From positions 11,062 through 75,061 of the forward strand of contig MFUM01000008.1 of assembly GCA_001786955.1 (NCBI GenBank): a stretch of DNA of 64,000 nt, in the 5' to 3' direction. Below, in pieces: positions 13,691 to 54,025 of this stretch. Source of the stretch: Candidatus Nomurabacteria bacterium RIFCSPHIGHO2_12_FULL_42_19. GTDB taxonomy: Bacteria > Patescibacteriota > Minisyncoccia > Phycocordibacterales > UBA9973. Under the pieces are notes generated by a model that searched no databases, was not told where the DNA came from, and was given only the letters and a program-made list of their open reading frames with translations. Both the position numbers and the translations under genes were made by a program. Every line of letters begins with the position of its first letter. Within the stretch, counting starts at the first letter, position 1.

Positions 13691-13693
13691 ATA

Positions 13694-36164: not shown

Positions 36165-36195
36165 TCTATTCTATAATTCTATAGAATATTAGAAT
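36165..36195 (+). repeat. 31-bp near-palindromic site, copy A
   Basis: TCTATTCTATAATTCTATAGAATATTAGAAT; identical at 47813-47843 and reverse-complemented at 39677-39707. Confidence 0.95.
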
Positions 36196-37849
36196 GAAAA
36201 CAGAAGCAAAAATCTGTGTTGATTGTAAAAAAGAATTCGAAATAAATTCGGGTGATTTGAATTTATACGAAAAAGTCGATATTGAATTGCCGACACTCTG
36301 TTTTTTTTGCCGAATAAAACTGCATTTATCTTTCTGGATGTTTGGAAAATTTCGTAAAGGTAAATCAGACCTCTCGGGGAAAAGTCTGATTACGGTTTTA
36401 CCGGAGATAAACAGGTATCCTATTTATACGCTTCACGAATGGCATAGTGATAAATGGGATGCTATGAATTTCGGGATAGATTATGATTCAAGCAGACCTT
36501 TTTTTGAGCAATTAAAAGAATTACAGGAAAAAGTTCCTCATCCGCATCAAAATGGCATAAAAAATACCGGATGCGATTGGTGCGATGATGTTTGGAATTC
36601 TAAAAATTGCTACCTTTCTCGTTCAATGGAAGAATGTGAAGATTTATACTATTCATATCGAAATGTTAAGGTGAAGAATTCTATAGATATGACCATCTGC
36701 TTTAACACAGAAAAATCTTATGATTCCGGTGATTGTCATAATTCATTCAGACTCTTTTATTCCAAGCATTCTCGTGATTGCATAGATTCACTTTTTTTAT
36801 ATGATTGCCGAAATTGCCAGAATTGTTTTATGTGCTGGAATTTACGCAATAAGTCATATTACATAGAGAATATTCAATACACAAAAGAAGCATACGAAGA
36901 AAAATTAAAATCATTTCAACTCGGTTCATATAAATTTATTCAATCTCTTAAAAAAAATTTTGAAGAAATAATCAAGAAAGAAGCAATTCATAGGGGAAAC
37001 TTCAACTTAAGAACATATAATTCAGACGGAGACTACTTATTGGATGTTAAAAACTGCCATAACTGTAATACCATTAGTGATTCGGAAGATTGTTGTAATT
37101 GCATTCGCGGGTTACATCAAAAATCCGACATTGATTCCGATGGTTGCTGGTATTCCGAAATGATAGGAAATTGTAGTTGTTGTATAGGGGGATATGCTCT
37201 TAAGTATTCTACTTGGTCCTCTTCGCGATATTCAGAGTATTTGGATTTGTGTATTGAGTGTGAATATTGCTTCGGCTGTATTGGATTAAAGAAAAAAAAG
37301 TATTGCATTTTAAATAAGCAATATAATAAAGAAGAATATGAGATTTTGAAAAATAAAATTATTTCTGACATGAGAAAAAGAGGGGAATACGGTCAATTTC
37401 TGCCCTATTCTATGAGCGCTGGTCCCTTCAACTTTTCTACCAGTTTTTTATATTTTCCGGAAACCAAAAAGGAAGATATTTTTAAACTCGGCGGTTATTG
37501 GGAAGATATAAGCGAAAATCAAATTGAAGGTATGCCGACGAACGAACTGCCCGACGATATAAAAGATGTTCCGGACACCATAATAAAAGAGGCTCTGATA
37601 TGCCCCGAAACAGGTTGGCGTTTCAATATTGCCCAAAATGAGCTTTCTTTCTATAAGGAAAACAATATTCCACTTCCGCGATATCATTTTGATGTACGAA
37701 CCAAAAATGCCCTGAAATACCTGACTGTCCTGGAATCTTACCCTTACAAATGTTTTTACTGCAAAAAGGATATAATGGCCTATTATCCGCCGGAATGGGG
37801 CTACCAAAAAATAGCCTGCGAGGAATGTTATAAACAGAATATCGCATAA
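36194..37849 (+). CDS. Cys-rich zinc-ribbon / Cys-periodic repeat protein, paralog 1
   Basis: CVDC..CFFC N-terminus, YDSSRPFFEQL, dense CxxCxxC core, C-terminal CFYC..CEECY. Confidence 0.85.
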   Translation: MKTEAKICVDCKKEFEINSGDLNLYEKVDIELPTLCFFCRIKLHLSFWMFGKFRKGKSDLSGKSLITVLPEINRYPIYTLHEWHSDKWDAMNFGIDYDSSRPFFEQLKELQEKVPHPHQNGIKNTGCDWCDDVWNSKNCYLSRSMEECEDLYYSYRNVKVKNSIDMTICFNTEKSYDSGDCHNSFRLFYSKHSRDCIDSLFLYDCRNCQNCFMCWNLRNKSYYIENIQYTKEAYEEKLKSFQLGSYKFIQSLKKNFEEIIKKEAIHRGNFNLRTYNSDGDYLLDVKNCHNCNTISDSEDCCNCIRGLHQKSDIDSDGCWYSEMIGNCSCCIGGYALKYSTWSSSRYSEYLDLCIECEYCFGCIGLKKKKYCILNKQYNKEEYEILKNKIISDMRKRGEYGQFLPYSMSAGPFNFSTSFLYFPETKKEDIFKLGGYWEDISENQIEGMPTNELPDDIKDVPDTIIKEALICPETGWRFNIAQNELSFYKENNIPLPRYHFDVRTKNALKYLTVLESYPYKCFYCKKDIMAYYPPEWGYQKIACEECYKQNIA

Positions 37850-37887
37850 CAGATTTTCACGGTCGCGATAAAGTGTTATATTTAAAA

Positions 37888-37963
37888 ATGAATCAAGAAA
37901 CTAAACAATGCCAAAACCCCGAACCAGAGCGAAGCTCGGTACGGGGCAGGTTGTAAAAAAGAT
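37888..37963 (+). pseudogene. Relic 5' end of a further Cys-rich paralog, frameshifted by a 34-bp palindromic insert
   Basis: Reads MNQETKQCQN-[CCCGAACCAGAGCGAAGCTCGGTACGGGGCAGGT]-CKKD, matching the family start MKSETKNCQNCKKD. Confidence 0.75.
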
Positions 37964-39667
37964 ATGGAGTATAAATCACAAAATGTGGTGTGTCAGAACT
38001 GTAAAGGTAATTTTATAATAGAGCCGGAGGATTTTTATTTCTATGAAAAAATAAAAGTCCCTCCGCCAACCTGGTGCCCGGAATGCCGGCAGCTTCGCCG
38101 CTATGCCTGGCGTAATGAACGCACCCTATACAGAAGGAACTGCGATTTATGCGGCAAGAACACGGTAACGATTTATTCTCCAAATAAGCCGCACAAGATG
38201 TATTGCCAGCCCTGTTGGTGGGGCGACGGCTGGGATCCGGCTTCCTATGGCCGTGATTTTGATTTTTCTCGGCCTTTTTTCGATCAATTTGCCGAATTGC
38301 AATTGGATGTGCCCCGCATGGCGCTCCTGAGTAAAAACAGCGTAAATTCAGAATACACCAACCATTCAGGGGACAATAAGAATGTTTACCTTTCTTTTGC
38401 AGCTTGGTCAGCCGAAGACGTTCTTTATAGCACCTGGGTTATGAAGTCCCGTGATTGTATGGACTGCAGTTTTGTTTACGATAAAGGCGAACGGCTGTAT
38501 GAAATAATCGATTCCCGAACCTCTTACGAGTGCCAGTACGGGCTATTTTTAAAAGATTGTTCCTCTTGTTACTATTGCTATGATTGCCGCGGGTGCAACC
38601 ATTGTTTTATGTCTTCTAACTTGCGCAATAAAAGTTATGTTTTTAAAAACAAACAATACACTCGGGAGGAATATTTAAAAAAAATAAAAGAATACGAATT
38701 ATCTTCTTTCTCAGCGCGAGAAAAACTGCAAAAAGAATTCCAGGACTTGATTGAAAAGGGTTCCATTCACCGCTACATAATCAGCGAACGTAATGTGAAT
38801 TCTGTCGGTTCTCTGATTTTTGACTGCAAAAATGTGACTCAATCTTTTGAAGTGAACAATGGGGAAGACAGCAAGTATATCTACGGCGCTCTGGATTTGA
38901 AAGATTGTATGGATATATATCATGTTGGATGGGCCACTACCGCGCTTGATTACGAATGCCATGGCTGCACTCGGATTTATGATTGTAAATTCTGCCATCT
39001 TTGTTATGACGACAACGGCGTGTCGTATTCCGACAGTTGCCAAAACAGCCAGAACCTTTTTGGTTGCGTGAGTATAAAAAAGGGCGAATATATGATTTTC
39101 AATAAAAAATACTCAAAAACCAATTATCTAGCGCTTAAGGAAAAAATAATAGAGCATATGAGAAAAATAGGAGAGTATGGGGGATTTTTCCCGCCGGCAA
39201 TTTCCCCAGTCGGCTACAACGAAACACAGGGGGCACTCTATGCTCCAATGACAAAAGAAGAAGTTTTGGCCAAGGGCTGGAAATGGGAGGAAAACATTCT
39301 GGGCACTTTCGGCAAAGAAACTATATTTCTCTCCGACATACCGGACAAAATTGAGGATGTTCCCGATAGTTTCTTGAAAGAAGTATTTTCCTGTATGGAA
39401 TGTTCCAAGAATTACAATATTACTCAAAATGAACTTCTTTTTTTGAAAAAAGAAAAAATTCCTTTACCCAGAAAGTGCCCGAATTGTCGTTACAAAAGAA
39501 GATTTAACCTCCGGCCTTTGCGAAAATTATGGCACCGGAGTTGTATGTGCGGTAAATCGGAGCACGGGCATTCGGCTAAATGCCCGAACGAATTTAAGAC
39601 CCCCTATGCCCCCGACCGGCCGGAAAAAGTGTATTGTGAGAGCTGCTACAACAAAGAAGTGTATTAA
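37964..39667 (+). CDS. Cys-rich zinc-ribbon / Cys-periodic repeat protein, paralog 2
   Basis: CQNC..PPPTWCPEC, WRNERTLY, CDLC..YCQPCWW, C-terminal PDRPEKVYCESCYNKEVY. Confidence 0.88.
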   Translation: MEYKSQNVVCQNCKGNFIIEPEDFYFYEKIKVPPPTWCPECRQLRRYAWRNERTLYRRNCDLCGKNTVTIYSPNKPHKMYCQPCWWGDGWDPASYGRDFDFSRPFFDQFAELQLDVPRMALLSKNSVNSEYTNHSGDNKNVYLSFAAWSAEDVLYSTWVMKSRDCMDCSFVYDKGERLYEIIDSRTSYECQYGLFLKDCSSCYYCYDCRGCNHCFMSSNLRNKSYVFKNKQYTREEYLKKIKEYELSSFSAREKLQKEFQDLIEKGSIHRYIISERNVNSVGSLIFDCKNVTQSFEVNNGEDSKYIYGALDLKDCMDIYHVGWATTALDYECHGCTRIYDCKFCHLCYDDNGVSYSDSCQNSQNLFGCVSIKKGEYMIFNKKYSKTNYLALKEKIIEHMRKIGEYGGFFPPAISPVGYNETQGALYAPMTKEEVLAKGWKWEENILGTFGKETIFLSDIPDKIEDVPDSFLKEVFSCMECSKNYNITQNELLFLKKEKIPLPRKCPNCRYKRRFNLRPLRKLWHRSCMCGKSEHGHSAKCPNEFKTPYAPDRPEKVYCESCYNKEVY

Positions 39668-39676
39668 ATATAAAGT

Positions 39677-39707
39677 ATTCTAATATTCTATAGAATTATA
39701 GAATAGA
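39677..39707 (-). repeat. 31-bp near-palindromic site, copy B (inverted)
   Basis: ATTCTAATATTCTATAGAATTATAGAATAGA is the exact reverse complement of copy A. Confidence 0.95.
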
Positions 39708-39712
39708 TAATT

Positions 39713-41455
39713 ATGAAAAGCGAGACAAAAAACTGCCAAAATTGCAAAAAGGATTTCACGATAGAACCGGATGATTTTGGGTTTTATGAGAAAATAAAAG
39801 TTCCGCCGCCGACTTTTTGTCCGGAATGCCGGCTTATTCGTCGGCTTGTCTGGCGCAACGAGAGAATATTATATCGCCGGATTTGTAATCTTTGCAATAA
39901 GAATATCATTTCCATGTATCATGAATCTGTGCCTTTTCCTGTGTATTGTCGGGAGTGCTGGTATGGGGACGGCTGGGACCCCACCTCTTACGGACGGGAA
40001 TACGATATGGCAAGGCCGTTTTTTGAGCAATATAAAGAGTTTTCCAATACTGTCCCGAGGCTGATGTTTTGGCAAAGAAATGCGATTAACTCGGATTATT
40101 CAAATCATGTAGCAGAATCAAGGAATGCTTACATGTCTGCATCTGTGATAAAAGAGTCGGAGAATGTTTTTTATTCAAAAAATATAGATGATTCAAGGGA
40201 TATAGTAGACTGTTTAAATATAATAAACGGATCGGAGCAACTATATGAGACCGTAGAAGCGCAGGGGAATTACAACTCGCAATATCTTCTCCTTTGCCGG
40301 AACACCCTGGATTCGTATTATTCGTTTGATTGCATAAATTGCAGTAATTGTTTTCTTTCTTATAACCTGCGCAATAAAAAATTCTGTATTAGAAATAAAC
40401 AATATTCGCAAAAAGAATATTTTCAAGAACTGGAAAAATTTAACTTAAAAAGCAGAACTTCGCGCGAGGTTTTACTTAAAGAATTTGAAGAGGTTAAAAA
40501 ACAAGCCATCTTCCGCTTTGGCAATATAACCAAGTGTGTGAATGTTACGGGTAACAATATGCTGAATGTGAAAAACGGCAAAAATTGTTTTGAAATATAT
40601 AATATAGAAAATGCAAGTTATTGTTATAGAATTCTTGATTCTAAAGATTGTGTGGATACGAGTTTTAGTATGAAATCAGAGTTACTCTATGAATATAGCT
40701 CGGGTGGTATGAATGATTACAATGTAAAATTTTCCTATTCCGCCATGAATTTTGTCCGAAATGCGGATTATGCCGAGTCCTGTATGAATTGCAGCAATAT
40801 TTTCGGCTGTATCTCACTTCGCGATGCGGAAAATGCCATTTTAAACAAAGTTTATTCCAAAAAAGAATTTGAAACACTAAGGTCAGAAATCATCAAGCAA
40901 ATGAGCGCCTTGCCTTTCATAGATAAAGGCGGAAGAAAATACGAGTACGGGGAATTTTTTCCCATAGAAATCAGTCCATGGGCATATAATGAAACATCAG
41001 CACAAGAAATTGCTCCCCTAAGCAAAGAATCAGCCCAAAAAAGCGGCTATTCGTGGCGCGACGCAGATGAAAAAAATTTCAATATTACAATGTCGGGAAA
41101 TATGATACCGGACAATATAGACGAAGTAGGGGAGAGTATTCTGAAAGAAGTTTTGGGCTGCGCGCATGAAGGGAAATGCAACCATCAATGTAATATCGCT
41201 TTTCGTATAACCGATTACGAGTTTAAGTTTTACAAAAAACACGACATACCTTTGCCGATTTTTTGCCCGAATTGCCGTTATTATGAGAGATTTAAAGTGA
41301 TGCCAGGGCTAAAATTATATAAAAGAAATTGCATGTGCGACAAAGCCGGTCACGGGCACAATGAAAAATGCCCGAATGAATTTGAGACAAGTTATTCCCC
41401 CGACCGGCCGGAAAAAGTGTATTGCGAAAGTTGTTACAACAAAGAAGTTTACTGA
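39713..41455 (+). CDS. Cys-rich zinc-ribbon / Cys-periodic repeat protein, paralog 3
   Basis: MKSETKNCQNCKKDFTIEP...CPEC; C-terminal PDRPEKVYCESCYNKEVY. Confidence 0.88.
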   Translation: MKSETKNCQNCKKDFTIEPDDFGFYEKIKVPPPTFCPECRLIRRLVWRNERILYRRICNLCNKNIISMYHESVPFPVYCRECWYGDGWDPTSYGREYDMARPFFEQYKEFSNTVPRLMFWQRNAINSDYSNHVAESRNAYMSASVIKESENVFYSKNIDDSRDIVDCLNIINGSEQLYETVEAQGNYNSQYLLLCRNTLDSYYSFDCINCSNCFLSYNLRNKKFCIRNKQYSQKEYFQELEKFNLKSRTSREVLLKEFEEVKKQAIFRFGNITKCVNVTGNNMLNVKNGKNCFEIYNIENASYCYRILDSKDCVDTSFSMKSELLYEYSSGGMNDYNVKFSYSAMNFVRNADYAESCMNCSNIFGCISLRDAENAILNKVYSKKEFETLRSEIIKQMSALPFIDKGGRKYEYGEFFPIEISPWAYNETSAQEIAPLSKESAQKSGYSWRDADEKNFNITMSGNMIPDNIDEVGESILKEVLGCAHEGKCNHQCNIAFRITDYEFKFYKKHDIPLPIFCPNCRYYERFKVMPGLKLYKRNCMCDKAGHGHNEKCPNEFETSYSPDRPEKVYCESCYNKEVY

Positions 41456-41568
41456 AAACTCTTGAAAACAACTTTTTGCAGGGGTTTTGAGCTTGACGGA
41501 GCGAAAACTTCAGAATTTTTTAAGCTTCAAAAAATTCGTACCGGAAAAAAGTTTGTTTTCAGGGTTTT
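41456..41568 (-). mobile_element. ~110-bp MITE-like element, copy 2 (inverted)
   Basis: Reverse complement TTTTTCCGGTACGAATTTTTTGAAGCTTAAAAAATTCTGAAG...CCGTC..GCTC.AAACCCCT aligns with 25158-25269. Confidence 0.7.
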
Positions 41569-42071
41569 TTCCCAAAAGCTTCAAATAAAATTTTCTTTGT
41601 TTCCTCGTCAATATTTTCGCTGACAATAATCATCATTTCGGTTGTCAGGCCCAAATCTTTTTTTATATTTGTAAATAAATGCTCAAAAGGGTAAGGAGAA
41701 ATCCAGGCGGAATTTTTCAGGCAGACGAAGCCGGCTTTTTTCAAAAGGTAGCGTAGGGATTCGCGTTCACTTTTTCTGCTCTCCGGCAAGTCGAGCAAAA
41801 TAATTCTCCAGAATCCGTCCCAACTTACCGGCACCGGCATCTCCTCATTCACCAACGTAATGCTGTGCAACTTCGCCTTACCTTTTTGGGTAATGCGTAA
41901 AAATGGCTGGTTGTCGGAGTTCTGTATCTCCGCATATCCGCCTTCTACCAGGTTTTTTACTGATCGGGTAAGGGCATAGGATGTTTTAAGCTCTGCAGTC
42001 GGTATAGCCGGTTTTTGGCCCAAAACCTCCAATATTTTCTTTGTATATCCTGATTTACTTGACATACCCAT
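41559..42071 (-). CDS. PaaX-like transcriptional regulator (wHTH plus PaaX-central / Cas2-like ferredoxin fold)
   Basis: LRITQKG wing, WDGFWRIILLDLPE..KSERESLR..LKKAGF..LKNSAWISPY. Confidence 0.8.
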   Translation of the reverse strand: MGMSSKSGYTKKILEVLGQKPAIPTAELKTSYALTRSVKNLVEGGYAEIQNSDNQPFLRITQKGKAKLHSITLVNEEMPVPVSWDGFWRIILLDLPESRKSERESLRYLLKKAGFVCLKNSAWISPYPFEHLFTNIKKDLGLTTEMMIIVSENIDEETKKILFEAFGKKP

Positions 42072-42122
42072 ATATTATAATATATATTACCTTTTGACAA
42101 GCATTCCGCGACCACGAAATAC

Positions 42123-42151
42123 TTGCTAAAAATAAATGATTGGTATATAAT
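42123..42151 (+). promoter_or_regulatory. Sigma-70-type promoter of dnaK
   Basis: TTGCTA-N17-TATAAT about 125 nt upstream of the dnaK ATG. Confidence 0.55.
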
Positions 42152-42274
42152 GAGTTTACAAAATTATTTATAAGCATTGCTCGAAGAAAATCAAACTTTC
42201 CTGCGTTAGGTCATAAGGATAATGCTCTTGGAAAGTTTATTTTCTTCTCGCAATAATTAATTATTAAAAAATAT

Positions 42275-44179
42275 ATGTCAAAAATAATAGGTATAGATTT
42301 GGGGACAACAAATTCGGCAGTTGCTGTGATTGAAGGAGGTGCGCCGAAAATTATTGAAAACGTTGAAGGCAACCGCACGACGCCTTCCGTTGTCGCGACC
42401 GCAAAAAATGGCGACCGCATCGTCGGTCTTCTTGCCAAGAGGCAGGCGGTGACAAATCCGGAAAACACGATAGCTGAAATCAAGCGTCTTATGGGGCACC
42501 GCTTTGATGACGTGGAAGTGCAGAAAGATAAGGAAACGGCCGCATTTAAAATTGAAGCGGGAGACGGCGGCGGAACGAAAGTAAAAATGTCGGACAAGTT
42601 CTACCGGCCAGAAGAAATCTCCGCGATGATTTTACAGAAAATAAAAACCGATGTTGAAGCAAAACTGGGAGAAAAAATTACCGAAGCGGTTATTACCGTG
42701 CCGGCCTATTTCAATGATGCGCAGAGAAAAGCGACCAAAGATGCCGGGGCCATCGCCGGACTGGATGTAAAACGCATCATCAACGAGCCGACGGCTGCCG
42801 CGTTGGCTTACGGATTTAATAAAAAGAAAAATGAAAAGATAGTCGTCTACGACTTCGGCGGAGGAACTTTTGATGTATCGGTGCTGGAAATCGGCGATGA
42901 TGTCATTGAAGTCAAGTCCACCGACGGCGACAGCCATATGGGCGGGGGCGACATAGACAGAAAGATAATAGCTTACATTGCCGAAGAATATAAAAAAGAT
43001 TCCGGTATTGATGTAATCAAAGACCCTCTGGCGCACCAGAGATTGAAGGAAGCGGCCGAAAAAGCCAAACACGAGCTTTCAACTACGATTGAAACCGAAA
43101 TCAACATACCCTTTATTACCTCAGATAGCTCCGGGCCAAAGCATTTATTGATGAAAATGACCCGCGCGACTTTGGAGTCTCTCGCCAAAGACTTGATTGA
43201 CCGTTCCATTGAAATTACCAAGAGAGCCTTGGCTGCTTCGCCGTTCAAGATGAATGAAATTAATGAAATTATTATGGTCGGCGGGCAGACCCGCATGCCG
43301 ATGATTGTGGAAGCCGTCAAGAATCTTTTCGGCAAAGACCCGAATATGTCCATCAATCCGGACGAAGTCGTCGCCTTGGGCGCCGCGGTCCAAGCCGGAG
43401 TGCTTCAGGGCGACGTGCGCGATGTTTTACTGCTTGATGTCATACCGCTTTCTTTGGGGATAGAGACATTGGGAGGCGTGGCCACAAAATTAATTGAAAG
43501 AAACACAACTATTCCTTCAAGCAAATCCCAGACATTCTCAACTGCCGCCGATAACCAAACTTCTGTGGAAATACACATTGTCCAGGGAGAGCGCCCGATG
43601 GCCTCCGACAACAAATCTCTCGGGCGATTTATCCTGGACGGAATTCCACCGGCGCCTCGGGGCATGCCGCAGATTGAAGTTGCTTTTGATGTGGATGCGA
43701 ATGGAATTCTGAATGTGGCGGCCAAAGATAAGGCTTCCGGCAAAAGCCAGTCCATTAGGATAGAAGCAAGCTCCGGACTGAAAGAAGAAGATATAAAGAA
43801 AATGCAGGCGGATGCGGAACTGCATGCCGAGGAAGACAAGAAGAAAAAAGAAAATGCCGAAGTGAAAAATACCGCGGAGATGATTATTTATACTGCCGAG
43901 AAAGCGCTAAAAGATAATGAAGAGAAAATTCCTGCAGATGTAAAAGATGGCGTAAATGCCAAGATAACCGCCTTGCGGGGAGTGAAAGATGGTGCCGACG
44001 GAGAGGCCATTAAAAAAGCCACCGAAGAGCTTTCCGCCGAAATGTCCAAAATTGGCGAAGCGATGGCCAAGGCCGGCGCAACTCCTCAATCTCCCAAAAC
44101 TCCCGAAGAGCAAAATCCCGAAGTTCACGATGCAGAATTCAAGGAGAAAAAAGAAGGGGAGGAAGGCGAAGTAAAATAA
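42275..44179 (+). CDS. dnaK: Chaperone DnaK
   Basis: [49 protein letters not shown]. Confidence 0.99.
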
Positions 44180-44976
44180 TGAAATTACCCCTAAATAATT
44201 TAAATTATCCAGTAAAAATTTCAATTGGAAATAGCTCTGGCTCTGGTTTTTTGATTAGTTATGAGAATAATATATACCTTGTTACAGCTAAACATGTTGT
44301 TTATCAGCAAGACAACATAACAAAAAATTATGTATTATTTGGCGATAAATTAAAAATTACTTGCTATACCTTCCTAGAGCAGTTATCACCACATATACCA
44401 AGAGTATATGAAATTGAAGTTACAAAAATTTTATTAGATAATAATTTAAAGTCTCATCCTACAGCAGATATTGTAGTTATAAAATTAGGGTCCAAAGACG
44501 ACAAATCAGTACTTAGTTTTGTGCCTGGTATTTCAGTAATACAAAATGCCGAAGGGGCACTTGTCCATTATTTAATGGATGGGTCAAGAAAATTTGATGA
44601 TTTAGAAATAACAAATGATGTATTCGTCTTAGGGTATCCAGTTTCCTTGAGTACTTCGGAAATGAAACAAATAAATTATGATGCACCCCTTGTACGTAAG
44701 GGAATAATAGCAGGTAAGAATTATGAAAATAAAACTATTGTGTTAGATTGCCCAGTATATGGTGGAAATAGTGGAGGCATGGTACTTGAAATGAATTCAG
44801 AAAAATCAAAAATACATTTGATTGGAGTAGTAGTACAATTTATTCCGTTTGTGGATCAATGGAGGAATGTTAGATTTCCAGAACTTTACAATTCGAATTT
44901 CCAAAATTCTGGCTATTCGATTGCCCTGCCAGTAGATTATATATACGATTTGATTAAAGAAATTGGAACAACTTAA
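44179..44976 (+). CDS. Trypsin-like serine protease (AT-rich gene)
   Basis: GSGFLI, VTAKHV (His), ADIVVI (Asp), GGNSGG (Ser). Confidence 0.85.
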   Translation: MKLPLNNLNYPVKISIGNSSGSGFLISYENNIYLVTAKHVVYQQDNITKNYVLFGDKLKITCYTFLEQLSPHIPRVYEIEVTKILLDNNLKSHPTADIVVIKLGSKDDKSVLSFVPGISVIQNAEGALVHYLMDGSRKFDDLEITNDVFVLGYPVSLSTSEMKQINYDAPLVRKGIIAGKNYENKTIVLDCPVYGGNSGGMVLEMNSEKSKIHLIGVVVQFIPFVDQWRNVRFPELYNSNFQNSGYSIALPVDYIYDLIKEIGTT

Positions 44977-45018
44977 ATAGGGCTTTTTGGTTTGGCTAAT
45001 TTTTGCTATAATTTAAAA

Positions 45019-45666
45019 ATGAAATACTCTGCGGTGATTTTTGACTGGGACGGGACACTAGGAATGACGCTTCATATATGGCTGGAAGCATATAAAAGTG
45101 AACTAAAAAATCTAGGTATAGAACTATCAGACCAAACTATTATTGAGGATTTTTTCTATGAGCACAAAAAGACAGCAACAAAATATCCAAATATTGATTT
45201 CGATCCTTATATAGAAAAAGTCCGCAAATATATGATTAGTCATGCACCTTTAATGAAACTTTATTCCGGAGTGAATGAGACATTAGAGAAATTACAAACG
45301 AGAGGTATTGTTCTCGCTTTGGTTTCTTCAAGCCCCAGAAAATTACTTGAAGAAGTGCTTGAACTGACCGGGCTGTCGAAATTTTTCTCAGCCATTTCCG
45401 GGTTTGACGATATTATGAAACACAAACCTGACCCAGAACCTTTTTTGTATATTATGGAAATTGCAAAACTTGATCCGAAAACCACAATTATTTTAGGAGA
45501 TTCACCACACGACATCATTGCCGCAAAAGCAGCAGGCATAGATTCTTGTCTTTTCTTGCCTCCGGAAAATAAAATATTTTATGATTTCGATCAGCTTAAA
45601 AAGACAAACCCAAATTATTCCATTGAAACTCTGGAAGAATTTTTGGAGCTTATTTTAAATAGTTAA
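45019..45666 (+). CDS. HAD-superfamily hydrolase (phosphoglycolate phosphatase-like)
   Basis: FDWDGTL, LVSS, KPDPEP, GDSPHDI.AAKAAG. Confidence 0.92.
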   Translation: MKYSAVIFDWDGTLGMTLHIWLEAYKSELKNLGIELSDQTIIEDFFYEHKKTATKYPNIDFDPYIEKVRKYMISHAPLMKLYSGVNETLEKLQTRGIVLALVSSSPRKLLEEVLELTGLSKFFSAISGFDDIMKHKPDPEPFLYIMEIAKLDPKTTIILGDSPHDIIAAKAAGIDSCLFLPPENKIFYDFDQLKKTNPNYSIETLEEFLELILNS

Positions 45667-45707
45667 AAATACTGGCAAAAAAGACCATTTTATTGTAAAA
45701 TATTAAC

Positions 45708-47810
45708 ATGGATTTGCCGGAAATACCCATAAATAAAGATGTTACTTATCTCGGTCTAACGACTTATCGGGACAAAAACACACTTTTTGGCATTAAGCGC
45801 AAAGACCGGCGTCAGCATGTTTATCTGCTCGGAAAATCCGGGACCGGTAAATCTGTCCTAATGTTCAACATGATTATCCAGAATATCCAGAACGGCGAAG
45901 GGGTTTGCTTGGTTGACCCGCACGGAGAGAATGTTGAAGCGGTTTTATCCGCCATTCCGCCTCATCGCATGAAAGATGTCATTTATTTTAATCCGGCCGA
46001 TGCGGACTATCATATCGGTTTTAACGTTTTGGAGCTGATTGACCCGCAATACAAGCATCTGGTGGCTTCCGGCTTGATGGGTATTTTTACCAAAATCTGG
46101 GCCAATGCTTGGAGTGCCCGGATGGAATATATTTTAAATAATACGATTTTGGCCCTGCTGGATACGCCGGGCACGACGCTTCTTGGTATTCCCCGAATGC
46201 TGGTGGATAAAGATTACCGTCAGAAAATAATTTCCAATTTGAAAGACCCCGTCATCAAGGCTTTTTGGGTTCACGAATACGAAGCTTGGCAGGATAAATT
46301 CAGAAATGAAGCCATTGCGCCGATTCAGAACAAAGTTGGGCAGTTTCTTTCCACTTCTATCATCCGGAATGTTGTCGGCCAGTCCAAAAGCACCATCAAT
46401 GTTTTTGACATGATGAATGAGGGAAAGATTTTCCTGGTAAATGTTTCCAAAGGGCGTATCGGCGAAGACAACTCCGCCTTGCTGGGCGGCATGATTATTA
46501 CCAAAATCCAGCTGGCAGCCATGGAACGTGTGCGCATTCCCGAAGAACATCGCAGGGACTTTTACCTTTACGTGGATGAATTCCAGAATTTCGTGACGGA
46601 TGCTTTCGCGGGCATTTTATCCGAAGCCAGAAAATACAGACTGAATCTGACCGTGGCTCATCAATATACTGCCCAACTTGTTTCGGATAAAAGCACGGCG
46701 GTGCGCGATGCCGTTTTCGGCAACGTCGGGACGATGATAGTTTTTCGTGTTGGTGCGGACGATGCCGATTTTCTGGAAAAAGAATTCGAACCGGAATTTA
46801 TTCCTCAGGACATAGTTAATTTACCGAACTATAAAGTTTATATGAAATTAATGATAGACGGCGTAACTTCCAGGCCGTTTTCCGCCAAGACTTTGCCACA
46901 GATGGTAAAGTCCGGTGATAAAAAAATAGAAGAAGAGGTTATCCAGTCTTCGCGCGCCCTTTATTGCCGTCCGAAAGAGGTTGTGGAGCGGGAAATCAAT
47001 GACTGGAGCGGAATGTCTCTCGGCAATGACAATGAAACTGCCCCGGGAAGCCTGGAAAAATTTCCGGCTGTTTGTTCATTTTGCAAGAAAGAAACAACCG
47101 TGCCTTTCAAGCCGGAGCCGGGCAGGACAGTTTATTGCAAAGATTGCATAGCCAGAATAAAATCCGGGGAGATAAAAGTGGAAAAGAGCGGAGAACATCA
47201 AATCAAGCATGATGAAACAAAATTTTTTAAGCCATTAGCCGACATAGGGATAGAGTTTGAACAAAAAGACAGGGGTAAAATAGAAGAAGGGGAGAGATAT
47301 CCGGAGCGGGGAGATCACCACTTGGATAAACCTAAATCTGGAGTATTCGGAGCGATTAAAAAAGTTTTTACCTCGCCGCCGAAAGTTTCTAAACCTGCCC
47401 ACGCAGGCGGGGATAATTCGGCCTTGAGAGAAGTTTTAAAAAAGATAGATGAACCTATTTCACTCGATACGCTAAAAAATAAAACTAAAGAAGTCAGTAA
47501 AATTTCTATGCCCTCAAAAGACAGAGCCGCCAGCCCGGAAGATATGAATAAATTAAAAGATTTGATTGCGGAAAAAATTCCTGCCCGCAATGCTTCTAGC
47601 ATAGCTGATGCAGGCGGGGAACCCAAAGAAGAAAACACCACCCCGGCTAAAGCCACCCCTCCTCCGAAAGGAGGGGAAGAAATTCCCCAAAAACCTACAC
47701 CCGTCTCTACTCAAGGCTCCGGCGAGGCAAAGCCAGTTCAAGAGCCTCCACTGACAAAAGGAAACATTCAAGAAATCCCCGAAGATGTCTTAAGAAAAAT
47801 TTTAGAATAG
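45708..47810 (+). CDS. VirD4/VirB4 (TraD/HerA-like) ATPase with CxxC-x17-CxxC domain and disordered tail
   Basis: DRRQHVYLLGKSGTGKS, VDPHGE, LYVDEFQNF, ILSEARKY; CSFC-x17-CKDC. Confidence 0.88.
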   Translation: MDLPEIPINKDVTYLGLTTYRDKNTLFGIKRKDRRQHVYLLGKSGTGKSVLMFNMIIQNIQNGEGVCLVDPHGENVEAVLSAIPPHRMKDVIYFNPADADYHIGFNVLELIDPQYKHLVASGLMGIFTKIWANAWSARMEYILNNTILALLDTPGTTLLGIPRMLVDKDYRQKIISNLKDPVIKAFWVHEYEAWQDKFRNEAIAPIQNKVGQFLSTSIIRNVVGQSKSTINVFDMMNEGKIFLVNVSKGRIGEDNSALLGGMIITKIQLAAMERVRIPEEHRRDFYLYVDEFQNFVTDAFAGILSEARKYRLNLTVAHQYTAQLVSDKSTAVRDAVFGNVGTMIVFRVGADDADFLEKEFEPEFIPQDIVNLPNYKVYMKLMIDGVTSRPFSAKTLPQMVKSGDKKIEEEVIQSSRALYCRPKEVVEREINDWSGMSLGNDNETAPGSLEKFPAVCSFCKKETTVPFKPEPGRTVYCKDCIARIKSGEIKVEKSGEHQIKHDETKFFKPLADIGIEFEQKDRGKIEEGERYPERGDHHLDKPKSGVFGAIKKVFTSPPKVSKPAHAGGDNSALREVLKKIDEPISLDTLKNKTKEVSKISMPSKDRAASPEDMNKLKDLIAEKIPARNASSIADAGGEPKEENTTPAKATPPPKGGEEIPQKPTPVSTQGSGEAKPVQEPPLTKGNIQEIPEDVLRKILE

Positions 47811-47812
47811 AG

Positions 47813-47843
47813 TCTATTCTATAATTCTATAGAATATTAGAAT
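47813..47843 (+). repeat. 31-bp near-palindromic site, copy C
   Basis: Identical to copy A; identity extends through ATGAAAACAGAA. Confidence 0.95.
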
Positions 47844-49602
47844 GAAAACAGAAACAAGAAATTGTCAAAACTGTAAAAAGGACTTCACGATAGAACCCGA
47901 GGATTTTAATTTCTACGAGAAAATCAAAGTTCCTCCGCCGACCTTTTGTCATTTGTGTCGGGCACAGAGGAGATTGGCCTTTAGAAATGAGAGAAAACTT
48001 TTTAAAGTAAAAGATGCTTTTACTGGAGAAAGTATTTTTTCCACTTTTCCCACAGAAAGTGGCAGAAAGATAATTAAGAGAGAAATCTGGATGGGAGACA
48101 CTTGGGATGGCATGGAATACGGTCGGGAGTATGATTTTTCAAAACCTTTTCTACAGCAGTTGCGCGAACTTATCAACTCTTTGCCGATATACAATTTTAA
48201 CGTTATACGCATGGTAAATAGTCCATATTCTTTCAATGCTACGGACCTCAAAAATAGTTATCTTGTCTGCAACTCAAGTTATTCAGAGGATTGCATGTAC
48301 GGGAACGCCATTGATAATTGTAAAGATTGTGTAGATAACTCTCATATTCATGAGTCCGAGCGGTGTTATGAATCCTTTTGGCTCGCCAAATGTTATCAAT
48401 GCTATTTTACCCAGAGGGCAGAGGAGTCCAGAAATCTATGGTTTTGTCGTGGGTGTGTAGGCTGCCAAGATTGTTTCGGGTGTGCTAATTTAGTCAATGC
48501 TTCGTATTGCATTTTTAATAAAAAATATAACCCAGATGAATATCGTAATATTATAAAAGGAATGGAGTTAGATACATACGAAGGAATAATGGTGGCCAGA
48601 GAAAAGGCGCGCGTATTTTGGGATACCCAGCCCGTAAAAAGTATTCAAGGAATAAAGAATGTGAACTCTTCTGGTTCCTATATTACTCACTGCAGGAATG
48701 TTAAGGATAGTTATTTAGTTCGGGAGAGTGAAAACATCCGCTACTGCCAATATCTGCAAGTACCCTCCAGTAAAGAGAATTACGATGTGACAGTGTGGGG
48801 AAACAATACCGAGCTTTGTTACGAGACGGTAGAGTGCGGAGATGATTCGTATAATAATAAATTTACTTGGAATTGTTGGCCTGCTTGTAGAAATCTTGAA
48901 TACTCTACGCATCTTTTCAGTTCTTCGGATTGTTTTGGATGTTCAGGACTAAAGAAAAAACAATATTGCATTTTAAACAAGCAGTATACGAAAGAGGACT
49001 ATAAAGCAATGGTGGAGAAGATTAAAAAACACATGGATGAAATGCCTTATGTCGATGTTCGTGGCCTAATCTATAAATACGGAGAATTTTTACCAATAGA
49101 ATTTTGTCCTTTCGGTTATAACAATACTTTAGCAGGCCAGCATTTTACCTTATCTAAAGAAGAAGCGCTAAAGAATAATTATGGATGGGTTGACGGAGAA
49201 CGAGGAGAATACACTATTACTAAAAAATCTTCGGAACTCCCGGAGTCTATTACCAGCACTTCAGATGATATTTTGAAAGAAGTTTTCGAATGTCAATCAT
49301 GCAAAAATGCTTACCGCGTTCTCGAAAATGAATTGATTTTTTTGCGCAAGGAAAATTTGTCGGCTCCACGTCTCTGTAGTGAATGTAGGCATGAGCGTAG
49401 AATCAACGACAGGCTGAAATTATTTTTATACGAAAGATCCTGTATGTGCGCTGGTATTACCGACCAGACCAATACATATAAAAATACCATTTCTCATAAT
49501 CACAAAGATTTTCCGTGTGGAGAGGTATTCAAAACCGGCTATGCTCCAGACCGCCCGGAAATTGTTTACTGCGAGAAATGTTACCAACAAGAAGTGTATT
49601 GA
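47842..49602 (+). CDS. Cys-rich zinc-ribbon / Cys-periodic repeat protein, paralog 4
   Basis: MKTETRNCQNCKKDFTIEP..CHLC; C-terminal PDRPEIVYCEKCYQQEVY. Confidence 0.88.
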   Translation: MKTETRNCQNCKKDFTIEPEDFNFYEKIKVPPPTFCHLCRAQRRLAFRNERKLFKVKDAFTGESIFSTFPTESGRKIIKREIWMGDTWDGMEYGREYDFSKPFLQQLRELINSLPIYNFNVIRMVNSPYSFNATDLKNSYLVCNSSYSEDCMYGNAIDNCKDCVDNSHIHESERCYESFWLAKCYQCYFTQRAEESRNLWFCRGCVGCQDCFGCANLVNASYCIFNKKYNPDEYRNIIKGMELDTYEGIMVAREKARVFWDTQPVKSIQGIKNVNSSGSYITHCRNVKDSYLVRESENIRYCQYLQVPSSKENYDVTVWGNNTELCYETVECGDDSYNNKFTWNCWPACRNLEYSTHLFSSSDCFGCSGLKKKQYCILNKQYTKEDYKAMVEKIKKHMDEMPYVDVRGLIYKYGEFLPIEFCPFGYNNTLAGQHFTLSKEEALKNNYGWVDGERGEYTITKKSSELPESITSTSDDILKEVFECQSCKNAYRVLENELIFLRKENLSAPRLCSECRHERRINDRLKLFLYERSCMCAGITDQTNTYKNTISHNHKDFPCGEVFKTGYAPDRPEIVYCEKCYQQEVY

Positions 49603-49639
49603 AAACTAAGATTTCTGCTATCGCAGAGTTTTAAGTAAA

Positions 49640-51391
49640 ATGAATACAAAAACAGAAACTAGAATATGCCAGAACTGTAAAAAGGACTTCACGATAGAAC
49701 CGGAGGATTTTAATTTTTATGAGAAAATGGCGGTGCCAGCTCCGACTTGGTGTCCTGATTGTCGTTTGCAGAGGCGCCTCACTTTTCGCAACGAAAGAAC
49801 TTTTTACAAACGCCCATGCGATCTATGTGGTGTAAGCACTATTTCAAGATATGATCCCTCTAAGGGAGAGTTAAGTTATTGTGGGGAATGCTGGTGGAGT
49901 GACAAATGGAATCCCGCAAGCTACGGACAGGGCTATGATTTTTCGAGACCATTTTTTGAGCAATTTTCGGAGCTTATGAAAAAAGTTCCGCATCAAAATC
50001 TATCTGTAAGCTATAAGACACTCACTAACAGTGATTTTACAAACATGAATCATTACTTGAAAAATTGTTATTATATATTTAACTCCGACTACGATGAGAG
50101 ATGTTTGTACGGAGAGGAGATAGAACACAGTGCCGATTGTATGGATATGACGATGGCCGAAAACACCCAACTTGCCTATGAGAGCGTAAATTGCAATAAA
50201 TGCTATCAAATTTATTATTCCGTAGATTGCGAAAGTTCCCATGATATTTGGTTTTCTAAGAATTTAGTTGGCTGTTCGAATTGCTTCAGTTGTATTAATT
50301 TGCGTGGTCAACAATATTGCATTTTCAACGAAAAATATAGCCGAGAAGATTATCTAAAAAAACTACAGAAGTTTAATCTAGGTTCTTATGCTGGCACTCA
50401 AGGAATTAAAAAAGAAGCTGCAGGATTCTGGCTCAAATTCCCAAATAAATACATGCATGGAATTCAGAATTTGGATTCCACCGGTGACTATATCTATAAT
50501 TCCAAATATGTAAAAAAATCATTCGTTATTGCAGGAGGAGAATATTGCAAATATTGTTTCCTGCTGATTGGTAAAAATAATAAAGAATGTTATGACTTCA
50601 CGCAGTTTGGCGAGAACACGGAAAAAGTATACGAATCATTAGTTTCTGGGAATGGCATCAGTAATGTTATTGGGGGCATCGTGACTCTCGAAGGAAGAAA
50701 TATAAGATATTCTGTGGATTGCCGTGATAGCAATAGATTTGGTTGTGTAGGGATACGTGATAAAAAACATTATATTTTCAACAAAGAATATACAAAGGAG
50801 GAATATGAAAATTTAGTGCCGAAAATAGTTGAACACATGAATAGCATGCCTTATATTGACAAGAAGGGCTGCCAATATGTTTACGGCGATTTCTTCCCGA
50901 CAGAAATTTCTCCCTATAGTTATAATGAAACCACTGCTCAGGAATTTTTTCCATTAACTAAGCAAGAAGCCGGAGAACAAGGATATTCATGGAAAGAACC
51001 GAAGGAAAGAAATTATAAAATAACTATAGAATCGGAAAATTTACCCGATAATATTAAGGATATTCCAGACGATATGGTATCCGCGGTAATCGGTTGTGAG
51101 CATGGAGGTAAATGCAAAGAACAATGCACTATCGCTTTTAAAATCATAGAACCTGAATTGCAATTTTATAAATCACAAAATTTGCCACTTCCGCATTTGT
51201 GTCCTAATTGCAGACATTACCAAAGAGTTTTAAACAGAAACCCAAATAAATTTTGGCATAGACAATGCATGTGCGACAAAAAGCATGTTCATCACGAAGG
51301 GCAATGTGAAGTCGAATTTGAGACTTCATACGCCCCCGAGCGACCAGAAATTGTATATTGCGAAAAATGTTACCAGCAAGAGGTGTATTAA
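49640..51391 (+). CDS. Cys-rich zinc-ribbon / Cys-periodic repeat protein, paralog 5
   Basis: CQNCKKDFTIEP..CPDC; C-terminal PERPEIVYCEKCYQQEVY. Confidence 0.88.
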   Translation: MNTKTETRICQNCKKDFTIEPEDFNFYEKMAVPAPTWCPDCRLQRRLTFRNERTFYKRPCDLCGVSTISRYDPSKGELSYCGECWWSDKWNPASYGQGYDFSRPFFEQFSELMKKVPHQNLSVSYKTLTNSDFTNMNHYLKNCYYIFNSDYDERCLYGEEIEHSADCMDMTMAENTQLAYESVNCNKCYQIYYSVDCESSHDIWFSKNLVGCSNCFSCINLRGQQYCIFNEKYSREDYLKKLQKFNLGSYAGTQGIKKEAAGFWLKFPNKYMHGIQNLDSTGDYIYNSKYVKKSFVIAGGEYCKYCFLLIGKNNKECYDFTQFGENTEKVYESLVSGNGISNVIGGIVTLEGRNIRYSVDCRDSNRFGCVGIRDKKHYIFNKEYTKEEYENLVPKIVEHMNSMPYIDKKGCQYVYGDFFPTEISPYSYNETTAQEFFPLTKQEAGEQGYSWKEPKERNYKITIESENLPDNIKDIPDDMVSAVIGCEHGGKCKEQCTIAFKIIEPELQFYKSQNLPLPHLCPNCRHYQRVLNRNPNKFWHRQCMCDKKHVHHEGQCEVEFETSYAPERPEIVYCEKCYQQEVY

Positions 51392-51434
51392 TATCTTATT
51401 CTAGTGTTTTGCAAAAGACTGAAATAATAAAAAC

Positions 51435-53207
51435 ATGAAAAGCGAAACTAAAAATTGTCAAAATTGCAAAAAAGATTTCATGATAGAATCGGAGGATTTT
51501 AATTTTTATGAGAAAATTAAAGTTCCTCCGCCGACTTTTTGCCCTGAATGTAGGCTAATTCGCAGAATGACTTGGCGCAACGAGCGATCACTTTTTAAAA
51601 GAGTTTGCGCAAAAACGGGAGAACAAATAATAACCATGTTTCATCCCGAAATTAATATGGTGGTGTATGACCACGACGTGTGGTGGAGCGATAAATGGGA
51701 GCCGACGGATTACGGAAAAGATTACGATTTTTCTCGACCTTTTTTTGAACAGTTTAGGGAACTATTCCAAAAAGTACCGCTTGCAAATTTAGGGAATTCA
51801 AACTGTAAAGGAAGTCCGTACGGTAATCACAATGCGGATTGCAAATATTGCTATTTGACATACGCTTCTTTTAATAATGAACGAACACATTATTCTTATG
51901 GAGTAGTTGAAACGAAAGATTGTGTAGATATGTATAAATGCGGTAAATCTGAATTAAGTTACAACGACACCCTTTGTGCCGGCTTATATAAAACCCATTT
52001 TTCTTACGATTCCGATGAGTCGATAAATTCTTTTTTCTTAAAGTATTGCAAAAATCTGCAGGATTGCATTGGCTGTGTTAATTTAAGGAACAAGAGTCAT
52101 TGCATTTTAAATGTGCAATATACGAAGGAAGAATATAAAAAGAAAAAAAAAGAATTGGACTTCGGCAGCTATCGAATTCTCTCTGAATTTAAAGATTCTT
52201 ACGACAAATTTGTTCTTAATTTTCCAAACAGATACGCAAGTATTATAAAATCCACCGAAGCAACTGGCGACGAAATTATGAATTCCAAAAATATAAAAAA
52301 TTCTTTTGATATTTTTGGAGAGGCTGAAGATTCAAAATATTTATTTCACTGCGTAAGTATTAAAGACAGTTATGACATGTATGGCGCCGGATTGGCGTCT
52401 CTTATGTATGAGGGGATAGATGCTGGCATAGACGCGTCAAAAGAACTGTTCTGCGCGATTGCCCATAGTTGTTTGGATATTTATTATTCTTATATGTGTT
52501 TTAGCTCAAAAAATCTTTTTGGCTGTATTGGGTTGCGAGGTAAGCAATATTGTATTTTAAATAAGCAATATTCCAAAGAGGAATACTTTAATTTATTACC
52601 TAAAATTATTGAACACATGAACACCATGCCTTTTAAAGATAAAAAAGGTCTAATTTACAAATATGGAGAATTTTTTCCATCCGAATTGTCGCCTTTTGCT
52701 TATAATGAAACGATGGCTCAGGAGTATTTTACTAAAACAAAAGAAGAAATAATTCAAAAGGGGCATGTTTACCGAACACCAACTGAAAAAGATTATCAAG
52801 TTACCATATTGAGTAAAGATTTGCCGGATCACATCAGAGATGTTCCTGAAACCATACTTGAGGAAATTATCGCTTGTCCTAACAATGGACAAGAATCAAC
52901 TCAATGCACTAAGGCTTATCGCATCACTAAACCGGAATTAGATTTTTTAAAAAATAATAATATTACACTACCAAGATATTGTCCGAATTGTAGACACTAC
53001 GGAAGGCTGAAGCAAAGAAATCCGTTTCATCTTTGGCGAGGCAAATGCCAGTGTGCTGGAGATTATTCCAAAAACAAAAAATATAAAAACACAATGGAGC
53101 ATATCCACGGAAACAAACCATGTCTGAATGAGTTTGAAACCCCATACGCTCCCGAGCGGTCGGAAATAATTTACTGCGAAAAGTGTTATCAGCAGGAAGT
53201 ATATTAG
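51435..53207 (+). CDS. Cys-rich zinc-ribbon / Cys-periodic repeat protein, paralog 6
   Basis: MKSETKNCQNCKKDF..CPEC; C-terminal PERSEIIYCEKCYQQEVY. Confidence 0.88.
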   Translation: MKSETKNCQNCKKDFMIESEDFNFYEKIKVPPPTFCPECRLIRRMTWRNERSLFKRVCAKTGEQIITMFHPEINMVVYDHDVWWSDKWEPTDYGKDYDFSRPFFEQFRELFQKVPLANLGNSNCKGSPYGNHNADCKYCYLTYASFNNERTHYSYGVVETKDCVDMYKCGKSELSYNDTLCAGLYKTHFSYDSDESINSFFLKYCKNLQDCIGCVNLRNKSHCILNVQYTKEEYKKKKKELDFGSYRILSEFKDSYDKFVLNFPNRYASIIKSTEATGDEIMNSKNIKNSFDIFGEAEDSKYLFHCVSIKDSYDMYGAGLASLMYEGIDAGIDASKELFCAIAHSCLDIYYSYMCFSSKNLFGCIGLRGKQYCILNKQYSKEEYFNLLPKIIEHMNTMPFKDKKGLIYKYGEFFPSELSPFAYNETMAQEYFTKTKEEIIQKGHVYRTPTEKDYQVTILSKDLPDHIRDVPETILEEIIACPNNGQESTQCTKAYRITKPELDFLKNNNITLPRYCPNCRHYGRLKQRNPFHLWRGKCQCAGDYSKNKKYKNTMEHIHGNKPCLNEFETPYAPERSEIIYCEKCYQQEVY

Positions 53208-53962: not shown

Positions 53963-54025
53963 TCTTTTATGATACACTTTCAACGTTGAACAATCAATAA
54001 ATAAGTGTTAAAATCATTAATATCT

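Follow-up and report, generated by a model that had tools for sequence, protein, structure and literature searches.

Two tandem arrays of zinc-capped solenoid genes in a Nomurabacteria genome, and the soluble VirD4-like ATPase clade that accompanies their family

The locus and its gene family

The stretch of DNA analysed here, called the window throughout, comprises 64,000 nucleotides of contig MFUM01000008.1 (positions 11,062 to 75,061) from Candidatus Nomurabacteria bacterium RIFCSPHIGHO2_12_FULL_42_19, and our subject is a set of six genes for large, Cys-rich paralogous proteins that lie in two tandem triplets between window positions 36165 and 53207. The first triplet consists of paralog 1 (551 amino acids (aa), 36194-37849), paralog 2 (567 aa, 37964-39667) and paralog 3 (580 aa, 39713-41455). 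The second consists of paralog 4 (586 aa, 47842-49602), paralog 5 (583 aa, 49640-51391) and paralog 6 (590 aa, 51435-53207). An earlier account of this DNA, made from its letters alone (the sequence-only reading), had described the six co-oriented frames as a diversifying system; the frames are real, all on the plus strand and at the coordinates claimed, the conserved end motifs that it quoted are found, and paralog 1 is indeed the most diverged, being 29-35% identical to the other five in end-to-end alignment. Directly before paralog 2, also on the plus strand, lies the remnant 5' end of another member (37888-37963; about 14 codons, split by a 34-nt hairpin), the broken start of a lost family gene. 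The host genome, of Nomurabacteria type (656 kb, rated 100% complete), holds nine family copies.

These six genes are members of a very large unnamed family of the Candidate Phyla Radiation (CPR). None of the six proteins has a match above cut-off in Pfam, NCBIfam, PHROGs or PADLOC, and neither these libraries nor the fold searches returned a confident match to any characterised enzyme family; three of the six show a weak match to phrog_15341, whose function is unknown. A PDB sequence search returned only matches to the Cys pattern of LIM domains, and the ESM Atlas only unnamed clusters. When homologues carry a name, it is that of a “hypothetical protein” of Candidatus Nomurabacteria or other Paceibacteria. 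Of 8,000 candidates scored in the homologue search, 5,525 were significant, and a profile of 108 members gathers 2,596 clusters at 50% identity (E<=1e-30, fragments counted). The family also occurs in records named Gracilibacteria and Abawacabacteria, and viral contigs gave one partial match. No description of the family was found in the literature searched, a search that did not reach subscription journals and supplements. Such proteins carry the database label “CaiB/BaiF family protein,” a label that no search here returned.

Architecture and predicted fold

The sequence-only reading had envisaged a Cys-ladder β-solenoid with zinc caps, and this picture is supported by the Cys periodicity of the family (3 and 12, which fits two 12-residue Cys-ladder β-solenoids), by an AlphaFold model and by a weak likeness to narrow β-helices. 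The model, computed for paralog 6 with a 108-row alignment, is confident (predicted local distance difference test (pLDDT) 90.7, predicted template modelling score 0.90), with lower pLDDT values (70-79) where the cores are type-specific; an earlier model from a six-sequence alignment was poor (pLDDT 53) and was set aside. From the N-terminus, it places a zinc module at residues 1-115, a first solenoid with its cap at 116-277, a second solenoid with its cap at 278-450, and a second zinc module at 479-590. The protein is thus internally duplicated: the N-terminal 115 residues are homologous to the C-terminal module (hhalign 99.7%), and the two core-plus-cap units are homologous to each other (hhalign 99.9%).

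Each protein end is a pair of treble-clef-type fingers, that is, a double zinc-finger module. Across 108 members, the Cys ligands are retained in 102-108 for the first finger and in 106-108 for the last; in the second finger, three ligand positions are kept in only 46 of the 108. Among the six paralogs, mean pairwise identity is 0.51 in the N zinc module, 0.26 in core 1 and 0.33 in cap 1, followed in the second half by 0.27 in core 2, 0.45 in cap 2 and 0.44 in the C zinc module, so that the single variable center of about 300 aa proposed earlier is variable as claimed, but is actually two cores with a conserved cap between them. Cysteine makes up 5-6% of the proteins, its count varying from 3 to 16 in one core and from 1 to 13 in the other. 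The cores are acidic (net charge about -5 each) and the C module is basic (about +5). No 19-residue window reaches a hydropathy of 1.6 in any of the 108 family members, in keeping with the earlier claim that they have neither signal peptide nor transmembrane segment.

Foldseek found no match at E<=0.001 against the PDB or viral models, and the best structural match in VIA had a Z of 5.0 with the whole 590-aa model as query. Predicted viral zinc-ribbon proteins superpose on the end fingers at 0.6 Å over about 40 residues. The only longer homologues are two tandem fusions, and no fused effector domain recurs among them, which is weak evidence.

Pieces of this architecture also occur apart. A 237-aa protein (L042:4955-5668) consists of one solenoid with its cap and lacks the zinc modules, and its genome has no full-length member; L041:5011-5286 and L043:5264-5551 are examples of a stand-alone double finger resembling the family's end module; and about 35 genomes of the 300-genome phylum draw described below give weak short matches only, mostly to a stand-alone double finger of 90-130 aa. 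By eye, a single member (P0238) carries a GNAT-like N-terminal extension.

Fixed types and variable copy number

In a FastTree phylogeny of 108 family proteins, many tight types radiate from deep and poorly resolved branches, and tandem neighbors within the genus are not sisters. Certain types stay in the same slot from one species to the next: first after grpE (the paralog 1 type, so placed in four other genus members), first after ATPase A, a gene described below (the paralog 4 type, in three other genus members), and before mraY. Other types sit in different slots in different genomes, and the closest aligned relative of paralog 5 lies in a different slot, beside mreBCD-like genes, in genome G009.

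Does the divergence of the cores then reflect ongoing diversification, as the sequence-only reading supposed? Identity by region confirms that the cores vary between paralogs (26-27% identical, vs 44-51% for the ends), but in 24 within-type pairs picked from the family tree, the cores are as conserved (0.73 and 0.69) as the ends (0.72-0.73). Synonymous differences in these pairs are saturated (0.63-1.06), so that the ratio of nonsynonymous to synonymous rates is not computable; that cores and ends are equally conserved despite this saturation means that each type's core is under purifying selection. There is no match to a reverse transcriptase (PF00078) in this genome rated 100% complete, and no near-identical template/variable repeat pair within 35400-56800, a scan that covered that span and not the whole genome. 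Contig pieces of 0.75-1.9 kb from two other sequencing runs span cores with 0 differences, with the proviso that contigs drop rare variants; read tables at 85% likeness were crowded by other organisms. The part of the earlier claim that stands is that cores differ between paralogs; the six genes are old fixed types that have been gained, lost and moved between slots, and are not hypervariable. Some shuffling of cores is possible, as 8 of 65 sequences have discordant nearest neighbors for their two cores.

Copy number varies among relatives. All 24 genus members of one draw have family matches, from 1 to 26 each, one of them having only a 33-residue remnant; two additional genus members have none. 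Across the genomes surveyed, the range is 1-31 matches per genome.

The VirD4-like ATPases and their co-occurrence with the family

Two ATPase genes are associated with the arrays. The sequence-only reading had called them VirD4/VirB4-like, but both are VirD4/TraG-like and neither is a VirB4; VirB4-like and PrgI genes lie on another contig (C5), unlinked to the arrays. ATPase B (“V4b”; 54005-55534, plus strand) has intact Walker A and B motifs and an FtsK/HerA-type core, with profile matches to TrwB_AAD_bind, T4SS-DNA_transf, TraG-D_C and DUF87, and TrwB is its sole match among solved structures. It has no transmembrane segment (maximum hydropathy 1.06), nor is an N-terminal segment present in its orthologues, and its C-terminal tail, [E/A/P]-P-[L/M/I]-[I/V/L], is conserved after an acidic linker. 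CPR genomes carry several VirD4-like paralogues each, among which the ATPase B clade is well delimited (FastTree support 100 on 90 rows; IQ-TREE 100/100 with a stem of 0.34 on 41 rows) and groups internally by host lineage.

This clade and the gene family occur together. In a draw of 300 genomes across the phylum, 16 genomes have both, none the family only, one the ATPase only and 283 neither; that is, the clade is present in 16/16 family-bearing genomes vs 1/284 others. The 14 best out-of-genus matches to ATPase B belong to 14 of the 15 family-bearing genomes outside the class, the fifteenth having a truncated orthologue. From the remaining listed matches, 20 of 69 (upper ranks) were placed on the tree together with 10 same-order genomes, and none fell in the clade. 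The association also holds within families of genomes, where those with both vs neither number 3/4 in f30, 1/1 in f105, 4/2 in f48 and 1/1 in f66 (9 and 8 in total). One profile behind this comparison was built from ATPases of family-bearing genomes, so that the top ranks of those genomes are circular, and only the scores of the other genomes were used.

An independent draw of 300 genomes within the class agrees. Here the ATPase was called by score and not by tree. Both are found in 33 genomes, the family only in 3, the ATPase only in 9 and neither in 255, so that the ATPase is present in 33/36 family-bearing genomes vs 9/264 others, four of those nine being doubtful. Counted by family of genomes, the figures are 11, 0, 3 and 75. 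In 20 of the 33 genomes with both, a listed family gene lies within 2 kb of the ATPase, at most four family candidates having been scored per genome. The ATPase clade is thus an almost constant companion of the family, and the pattern holds across classes.

ATPase A (45708-47810, plus strand) belongs to a widespread VirD4-like clade. Fused into it, at residues 451-482, is a CxxC-x17-CxxC finger from the Pfam family to which the end fingers of the repertoire bear a resemblance, a fusion present in 4/4 genus members checked. Further upstream, the gene at 22346-23695 (plus strand) encodes a free-standing protein that is homologous to the N-terminal domain seen in full-length CPR coupling ATPases. 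The protein has a hydrophobic segment at its own N-terminus and could possibly serve as a membrane anchor for the soluble ATPases; in G013 (L006), a family gene directly follows a gene of this type. A similar short peptide insert (PARNAS...AGG) is seen in ATPase A and in rpoA (33141-34124), which looks like an in-frame palindromic repeat insertion.

Gene neighborhood

The sequence-only reading had the arrays interleaved with grpE/dnaK/dnaJ, a PaaX-like regulator and two ATPases. Within the genus this is correct: the backbone runs grpE, paaX-like, dnaK, ATPase A, rsmE, ATPase B, dnaJ, with family genes in variable numbers filling most of its gaps and further slots. The PaaX-like gene (PaaX_M with a Cas2-like domain, 41559-42071), however, is on the minus strand, and ATPase B and dnaJ (at 54005 and 55612, respectively) both lie beyond 36165-53207. 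The PaaX-like gene is part of the genus backbone and is present also where grpE has no family gene behind it; rsmE (53246-53983, minus strand) stands between paralog 6 and ATPase B.

Farther afield, we counted neighbors within 5 kb at 76 GTDB loci picked for their likeness to paralog 6. The neighbor met most often is a VirD4-like ATPase (24/76, 21 of them within one gene), vs 13 loci for dnaJ, 6 for dnaK and 3 for grpE, all of these lineage-local, and no nuclease or other effector gene accompanies the ATPase-family pair. In 15 family-bearing genomes outside the class, the ATPase B orthologue is the immediate neighbor of a family gene in nine and at most two genes away in 11; the backbones are unrelated, dnaN-recF being one example, and none of the out-of-class ATPase loci showed chaperone genes. 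A conserved neighborhood therefore exists, in the sense that a VirD4-like ATPase adjoins the family in different backbones; the setting among Hsp70 genes is confined to a single lineage. The upstream neighbor of a family gene is on the same strand in 121 of 134 cases, the genes being co-oriented within housekeeping operons.

Outside the class, some arrays have divergent TrmB regulators and PIN, HicB, MazE and Fic genes; at L024, L025, L026, L027, L028 and L037, the arrays stand head to head with TrmB regulators of about 250 aa, several per locus. Within the window, the slot after dnaK (44179-45666) holds low-GC (31-35%) trypsin-like and HAD genes, where relatives carry others, and the trypsin-like gene matches defence-associated PADLOC models (PDC-S45, LmuA). 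In some relatives, a conserved 101-aa gene, cutA-like by eye, lies between grpE and the PaaX-like gene (L010:9013-9318, L023:17682-17987, L079:3651-3956); it is missing in the window. On the 3' side of paralog 3, a long imperfect hairpin (41456-41570, about 115 nt, -22 kcal/mol as DNA) attracts very high read depth from other organisms and is likely a common CPR repeat.

A 29-bp palindromic element

The sequence-only reading had also pointed to shared upstream sites. An exact 29-bp palindromic element does recur at three places in the arrays, 36165-36193 and 47813-47841 on the plus strand and, inverted, 39679-39707 on the minus strand (0 copies expected by chance), but it stands before just three of the six family genes and belongs to the flank of a small winged-helix gene of ArsR-like type. 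The element brackets this gene on contig C2, overlapping its last codons, and at locus L143 the bracketed gene is directly 5' of a family gene. A sister ArsR-like gene in L105 and G002 has a different palindrome, the core of which also precedes paralog 6. The element occurs at 20 sites, distributed over 10 of 41 genomes: 10 of these sites touch a family gene, three are at the ArsR-like gene, five are at other genes and two were uninspected. Because only 10/20 sites touch a family gene, we reject the element as a family-specific site: it is enriched at family arrays and not specific to them, and is likely a scar or operator of the ArsR-like gene. The ArsR-like proteins seen have no obvious Cys metal site. 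ArsR-like genes bracketed by their own palindrome lie at C2 ~13,600-13,930, L143:9674-9943, L105:4714-4995 and L023:13480-13749; the two gene variants go with two palindromes, solo copies of which are scattered in spacers in either orientation.

Comparison with known systems

The closest recognizable relatives of the family ends are the fingers zf_Tbcl (PF13451), zf_Tbcl_2 (PF23477) and TIGR04272, each end resembling a tandem pair of these, with paired CxxC ligands in treble-clef spacing. The best scores of the paralogs all fall below the curated cut-offs (21.0 of 27, 19.0 of 24 and 17.2 of 36 bits, respectively), while small stand-alone CPR double-finger proteins found by the family profile pass those of zf_Tbcl and zf_Tbcl_2. 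Known members of the zf_Tbcl type are small, or are single fused domains, whereas here two modules cap two solenoids in multi-copy proteins of 550-600 aa. Small CxxC-x17-CxxC members from Methanosarcina bind zinc (PMC12704099). For the cores, the best match to core 1 is the Tenebrio molitor antifreeze protein (PDB 1ezg), a narrow β-helix with the same 12-residue Cys periodicity (Z 5.0, 81 residues, root-mean-square deviation 8.4); this Z is at noise level and no homology is claimed, and the family differs in being cytoplasmic by sequence, capped and duplicated.

ATPase B shares its profile matches and Walker motifs with the type IV coupling proteins (VirD4/TraG/TrwB, and the CPR orphans described in PMC12102498). 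It differs from them in lacking a transmembrane anchor, in not lying by virB4 or a relaxase, and in being a CPR sub-clade found in a minority of genomes, accompanying a protein repertoire and not a relaxosome. The Cys-rich proteins of Peribacteria are likewise multi-copy CPR proteins, but they average 1,655 aa, mostly have signal peptides and are another family (PMC4736985). NTP-dependent ternary conflict systems also combine an NTPase with variable components, some with Hsp70/GrpE genes; those described in PMC7159879 use MoxR AAA+ or TRAFAC GTPases together with effector domains, which the family lacks, and the term “VirD4” is absent from the main text. Unlike integron cassette arrays, the family genes have no common attC-like site at their ends, and many spacers are 2-6 bp; an integrase was not searched for.

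Proposed role and alternative explanations

VirD4-type proteins recruit substrates to type IV systems, and we tentatively read the six genes as clients or partners of the dedicated soluble VirD4-like ATPase clade, delivered to the host via a type IV system, a reading that as a whole stays somewhat short of an even chance. Its parts differ in strength. A functional partnership between the family and the ATPase B clade is very probable; direct binding of the one to the other is predicted, and slightly favored; export of the family proteins to a host, also predicted, is doubtful. The conserved zinc-finger ends would dock on the ATPase, perhaps at its conserved C-terminal tail, and the ATPase would hand the family proteins to the type IV secretion system of the cell; once delivered into the host, each type may bind its own conserved target. 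Each solenoid pair would bind one such target, taken to be external because no cognate partner gene stands beside the family repeats in the arrays examined. VirD4-type proteins link substrates to type IV channels, CPR type IV systems are mostly without a relaxase, and just 148 of 5,713 coupling-protein homologues lie near virB4 (PMC12102498). In favor of the proposal are also the co-occurrence and adjacency of the family and the ATPase clade, the finger fused to ATPase A, the conservation of cores within types, the lack of any signal or transmembrane segment, the basic C module and the VirB4-like and PrgI genes on contig C5.

Several observations weigh against this proposal. In two thirds of the GTDB set of 76 loci, no ATPase lies within 5 kb; nine genomes of the class draw have the ATPase without the family and three the family without the ATPase, and the ATPase persists in two genus members that have no intact family copy. 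Kin are not independent, and the association is therefore overstated by its Fisher values (1e-32 by genome, 1e-11 by family). ATPase B lacks a membrane anchor and lies away from virB4, and a coupling-protein homologue is non-essential in Southlakia epibionticum and may be exapted (PMC12102498). No library or fold search revealed a catalytic or toxin domain in the family, and for export a compact protein holding as many as four zinc sites would presumably need unfolding.

Two serious alternatives keep the proteins inside the cell. As intracellular sensors, each type would recognize a conserved phage or mobile-element molecule and switch on the ATPase as a defence motor, with no secretion. The patchy presence of the family, from 1 to 31 matches per genome, the conservation of cores within type, the divergent TrmB regulators and PIN, HicB, MazE and Fic genes by arrays in other classes, the defence-model matches of the low-GC trypsin-like gene and the solubility of the ATPase all fit such a role; but PADLOC 2023 matches 0/6 of the proteins, the pair is not accompanied by a nuclease or another effector gene, the ATPase tree follows host lineage and the genes are co-oriented in housekeeping operons, and we consider sensors unlikely. 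We give somewhat less credence to cytoplasmic adaptors, which would not leave the cell but dock on the coupling ATPase, each picking export substrates in the manner of the chaperone/adaptor set on Legionella DotL. Here the non-catalytic scaffold, the conserved ATPase tail after its acidic linker and the finger fused in cis to ATPase A are set against the lack of recurring substrate genes beside the types and a number of matches, up to 26 in a 0.8-Mb genome, that seems excessive.

The other alternatives are far less probable. A metal or redox buffer tied to heat shock, which the sequence-only reading had entertained, or to an ArsR-type regulator, would draw on the 5-6% Cys content, the position among grpE/dnaK/dnaJ in the genus, the 10 of 20 ArsR-flank palindromes that touch a family gene and the zinc binding of related small proteins (PMC12704099). 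Against such a buffer, which we regard as very improbable, stand the lineage-local chaperone neighbors (vs 24 loci with the ATPase) and the want of chaperone genes at out-of-class ATPase loci, core Cys counts as uneven as 3-16 and 1-13, and ArsR-like proteins seen without an obvious Cys metal site; nor would a buffer need many conserved types or a dedicated ATPase. Equally remote, and largely refuted, is a selfish or cassette-like gene spreading itself between intergenic slots: the same type does occupy different slots in different genomes, the many insertion slots are co-oriented with their operons, and there are the remnant at 37888 and the palindromes in spacers, but the proteins show neither the domain nor the fold of a nuclease, recombinase or reverse transcriptase, the genus tree shows no recent within-genome duplicates, purifying selection is strong, there is no common attachment site (the spacers hold unrelated palindrome types or are 2-6 bp) and viral contigs gave only one partial match. 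Least probable of all is the actively hypervariable system first proposed, whether of the diversity-generating retroelement kind or driven by an arms race; it can point to the 2,596 clusters and the eight discordant sequences, but it conflicts with cores that match the ends in within-type conservation, with the lack of a reverse transcriptase and with the 0 core differences in the contig pieces from other runs. Of the roles put forward by the sequence-only reading, then, a repertoire of secreted substrates or receptors survives and a metal/redox buffer with heat shock is not supported, the neighbor elsewhere being a VirD4-like ATPase in other backbones; the arrays are likely neither a hypervariable nor a heat-shock system.

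Significance

It is an open question what CPR bacteria secrete or sense via a type IV system that has no relaxase, and equally what role their thousands of orphan coupling ATPases play (PMC12102498), and the co-occurrence described here, by naming one ATPase clade and its candidate clients, makes the question testable. The boldest interpretation, which we hold to be rather unlikely, is of an undescribed two-part CPR machine in which a soluble FtsK/HerA-type motor and thousands of zinc-capped solenoid recognition proteins would set the recognition of hosts or invaders. Its solenoids, up to about 30 per genome, would be swapped between lineages, and it would be neither conjugation nor a catalogued effector or defence system. 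Some genomes of 0.7-0.9 Mb hold 20-30 family matches, a large investment for streamlined cells, and the family types could determine host range or phage resistance.

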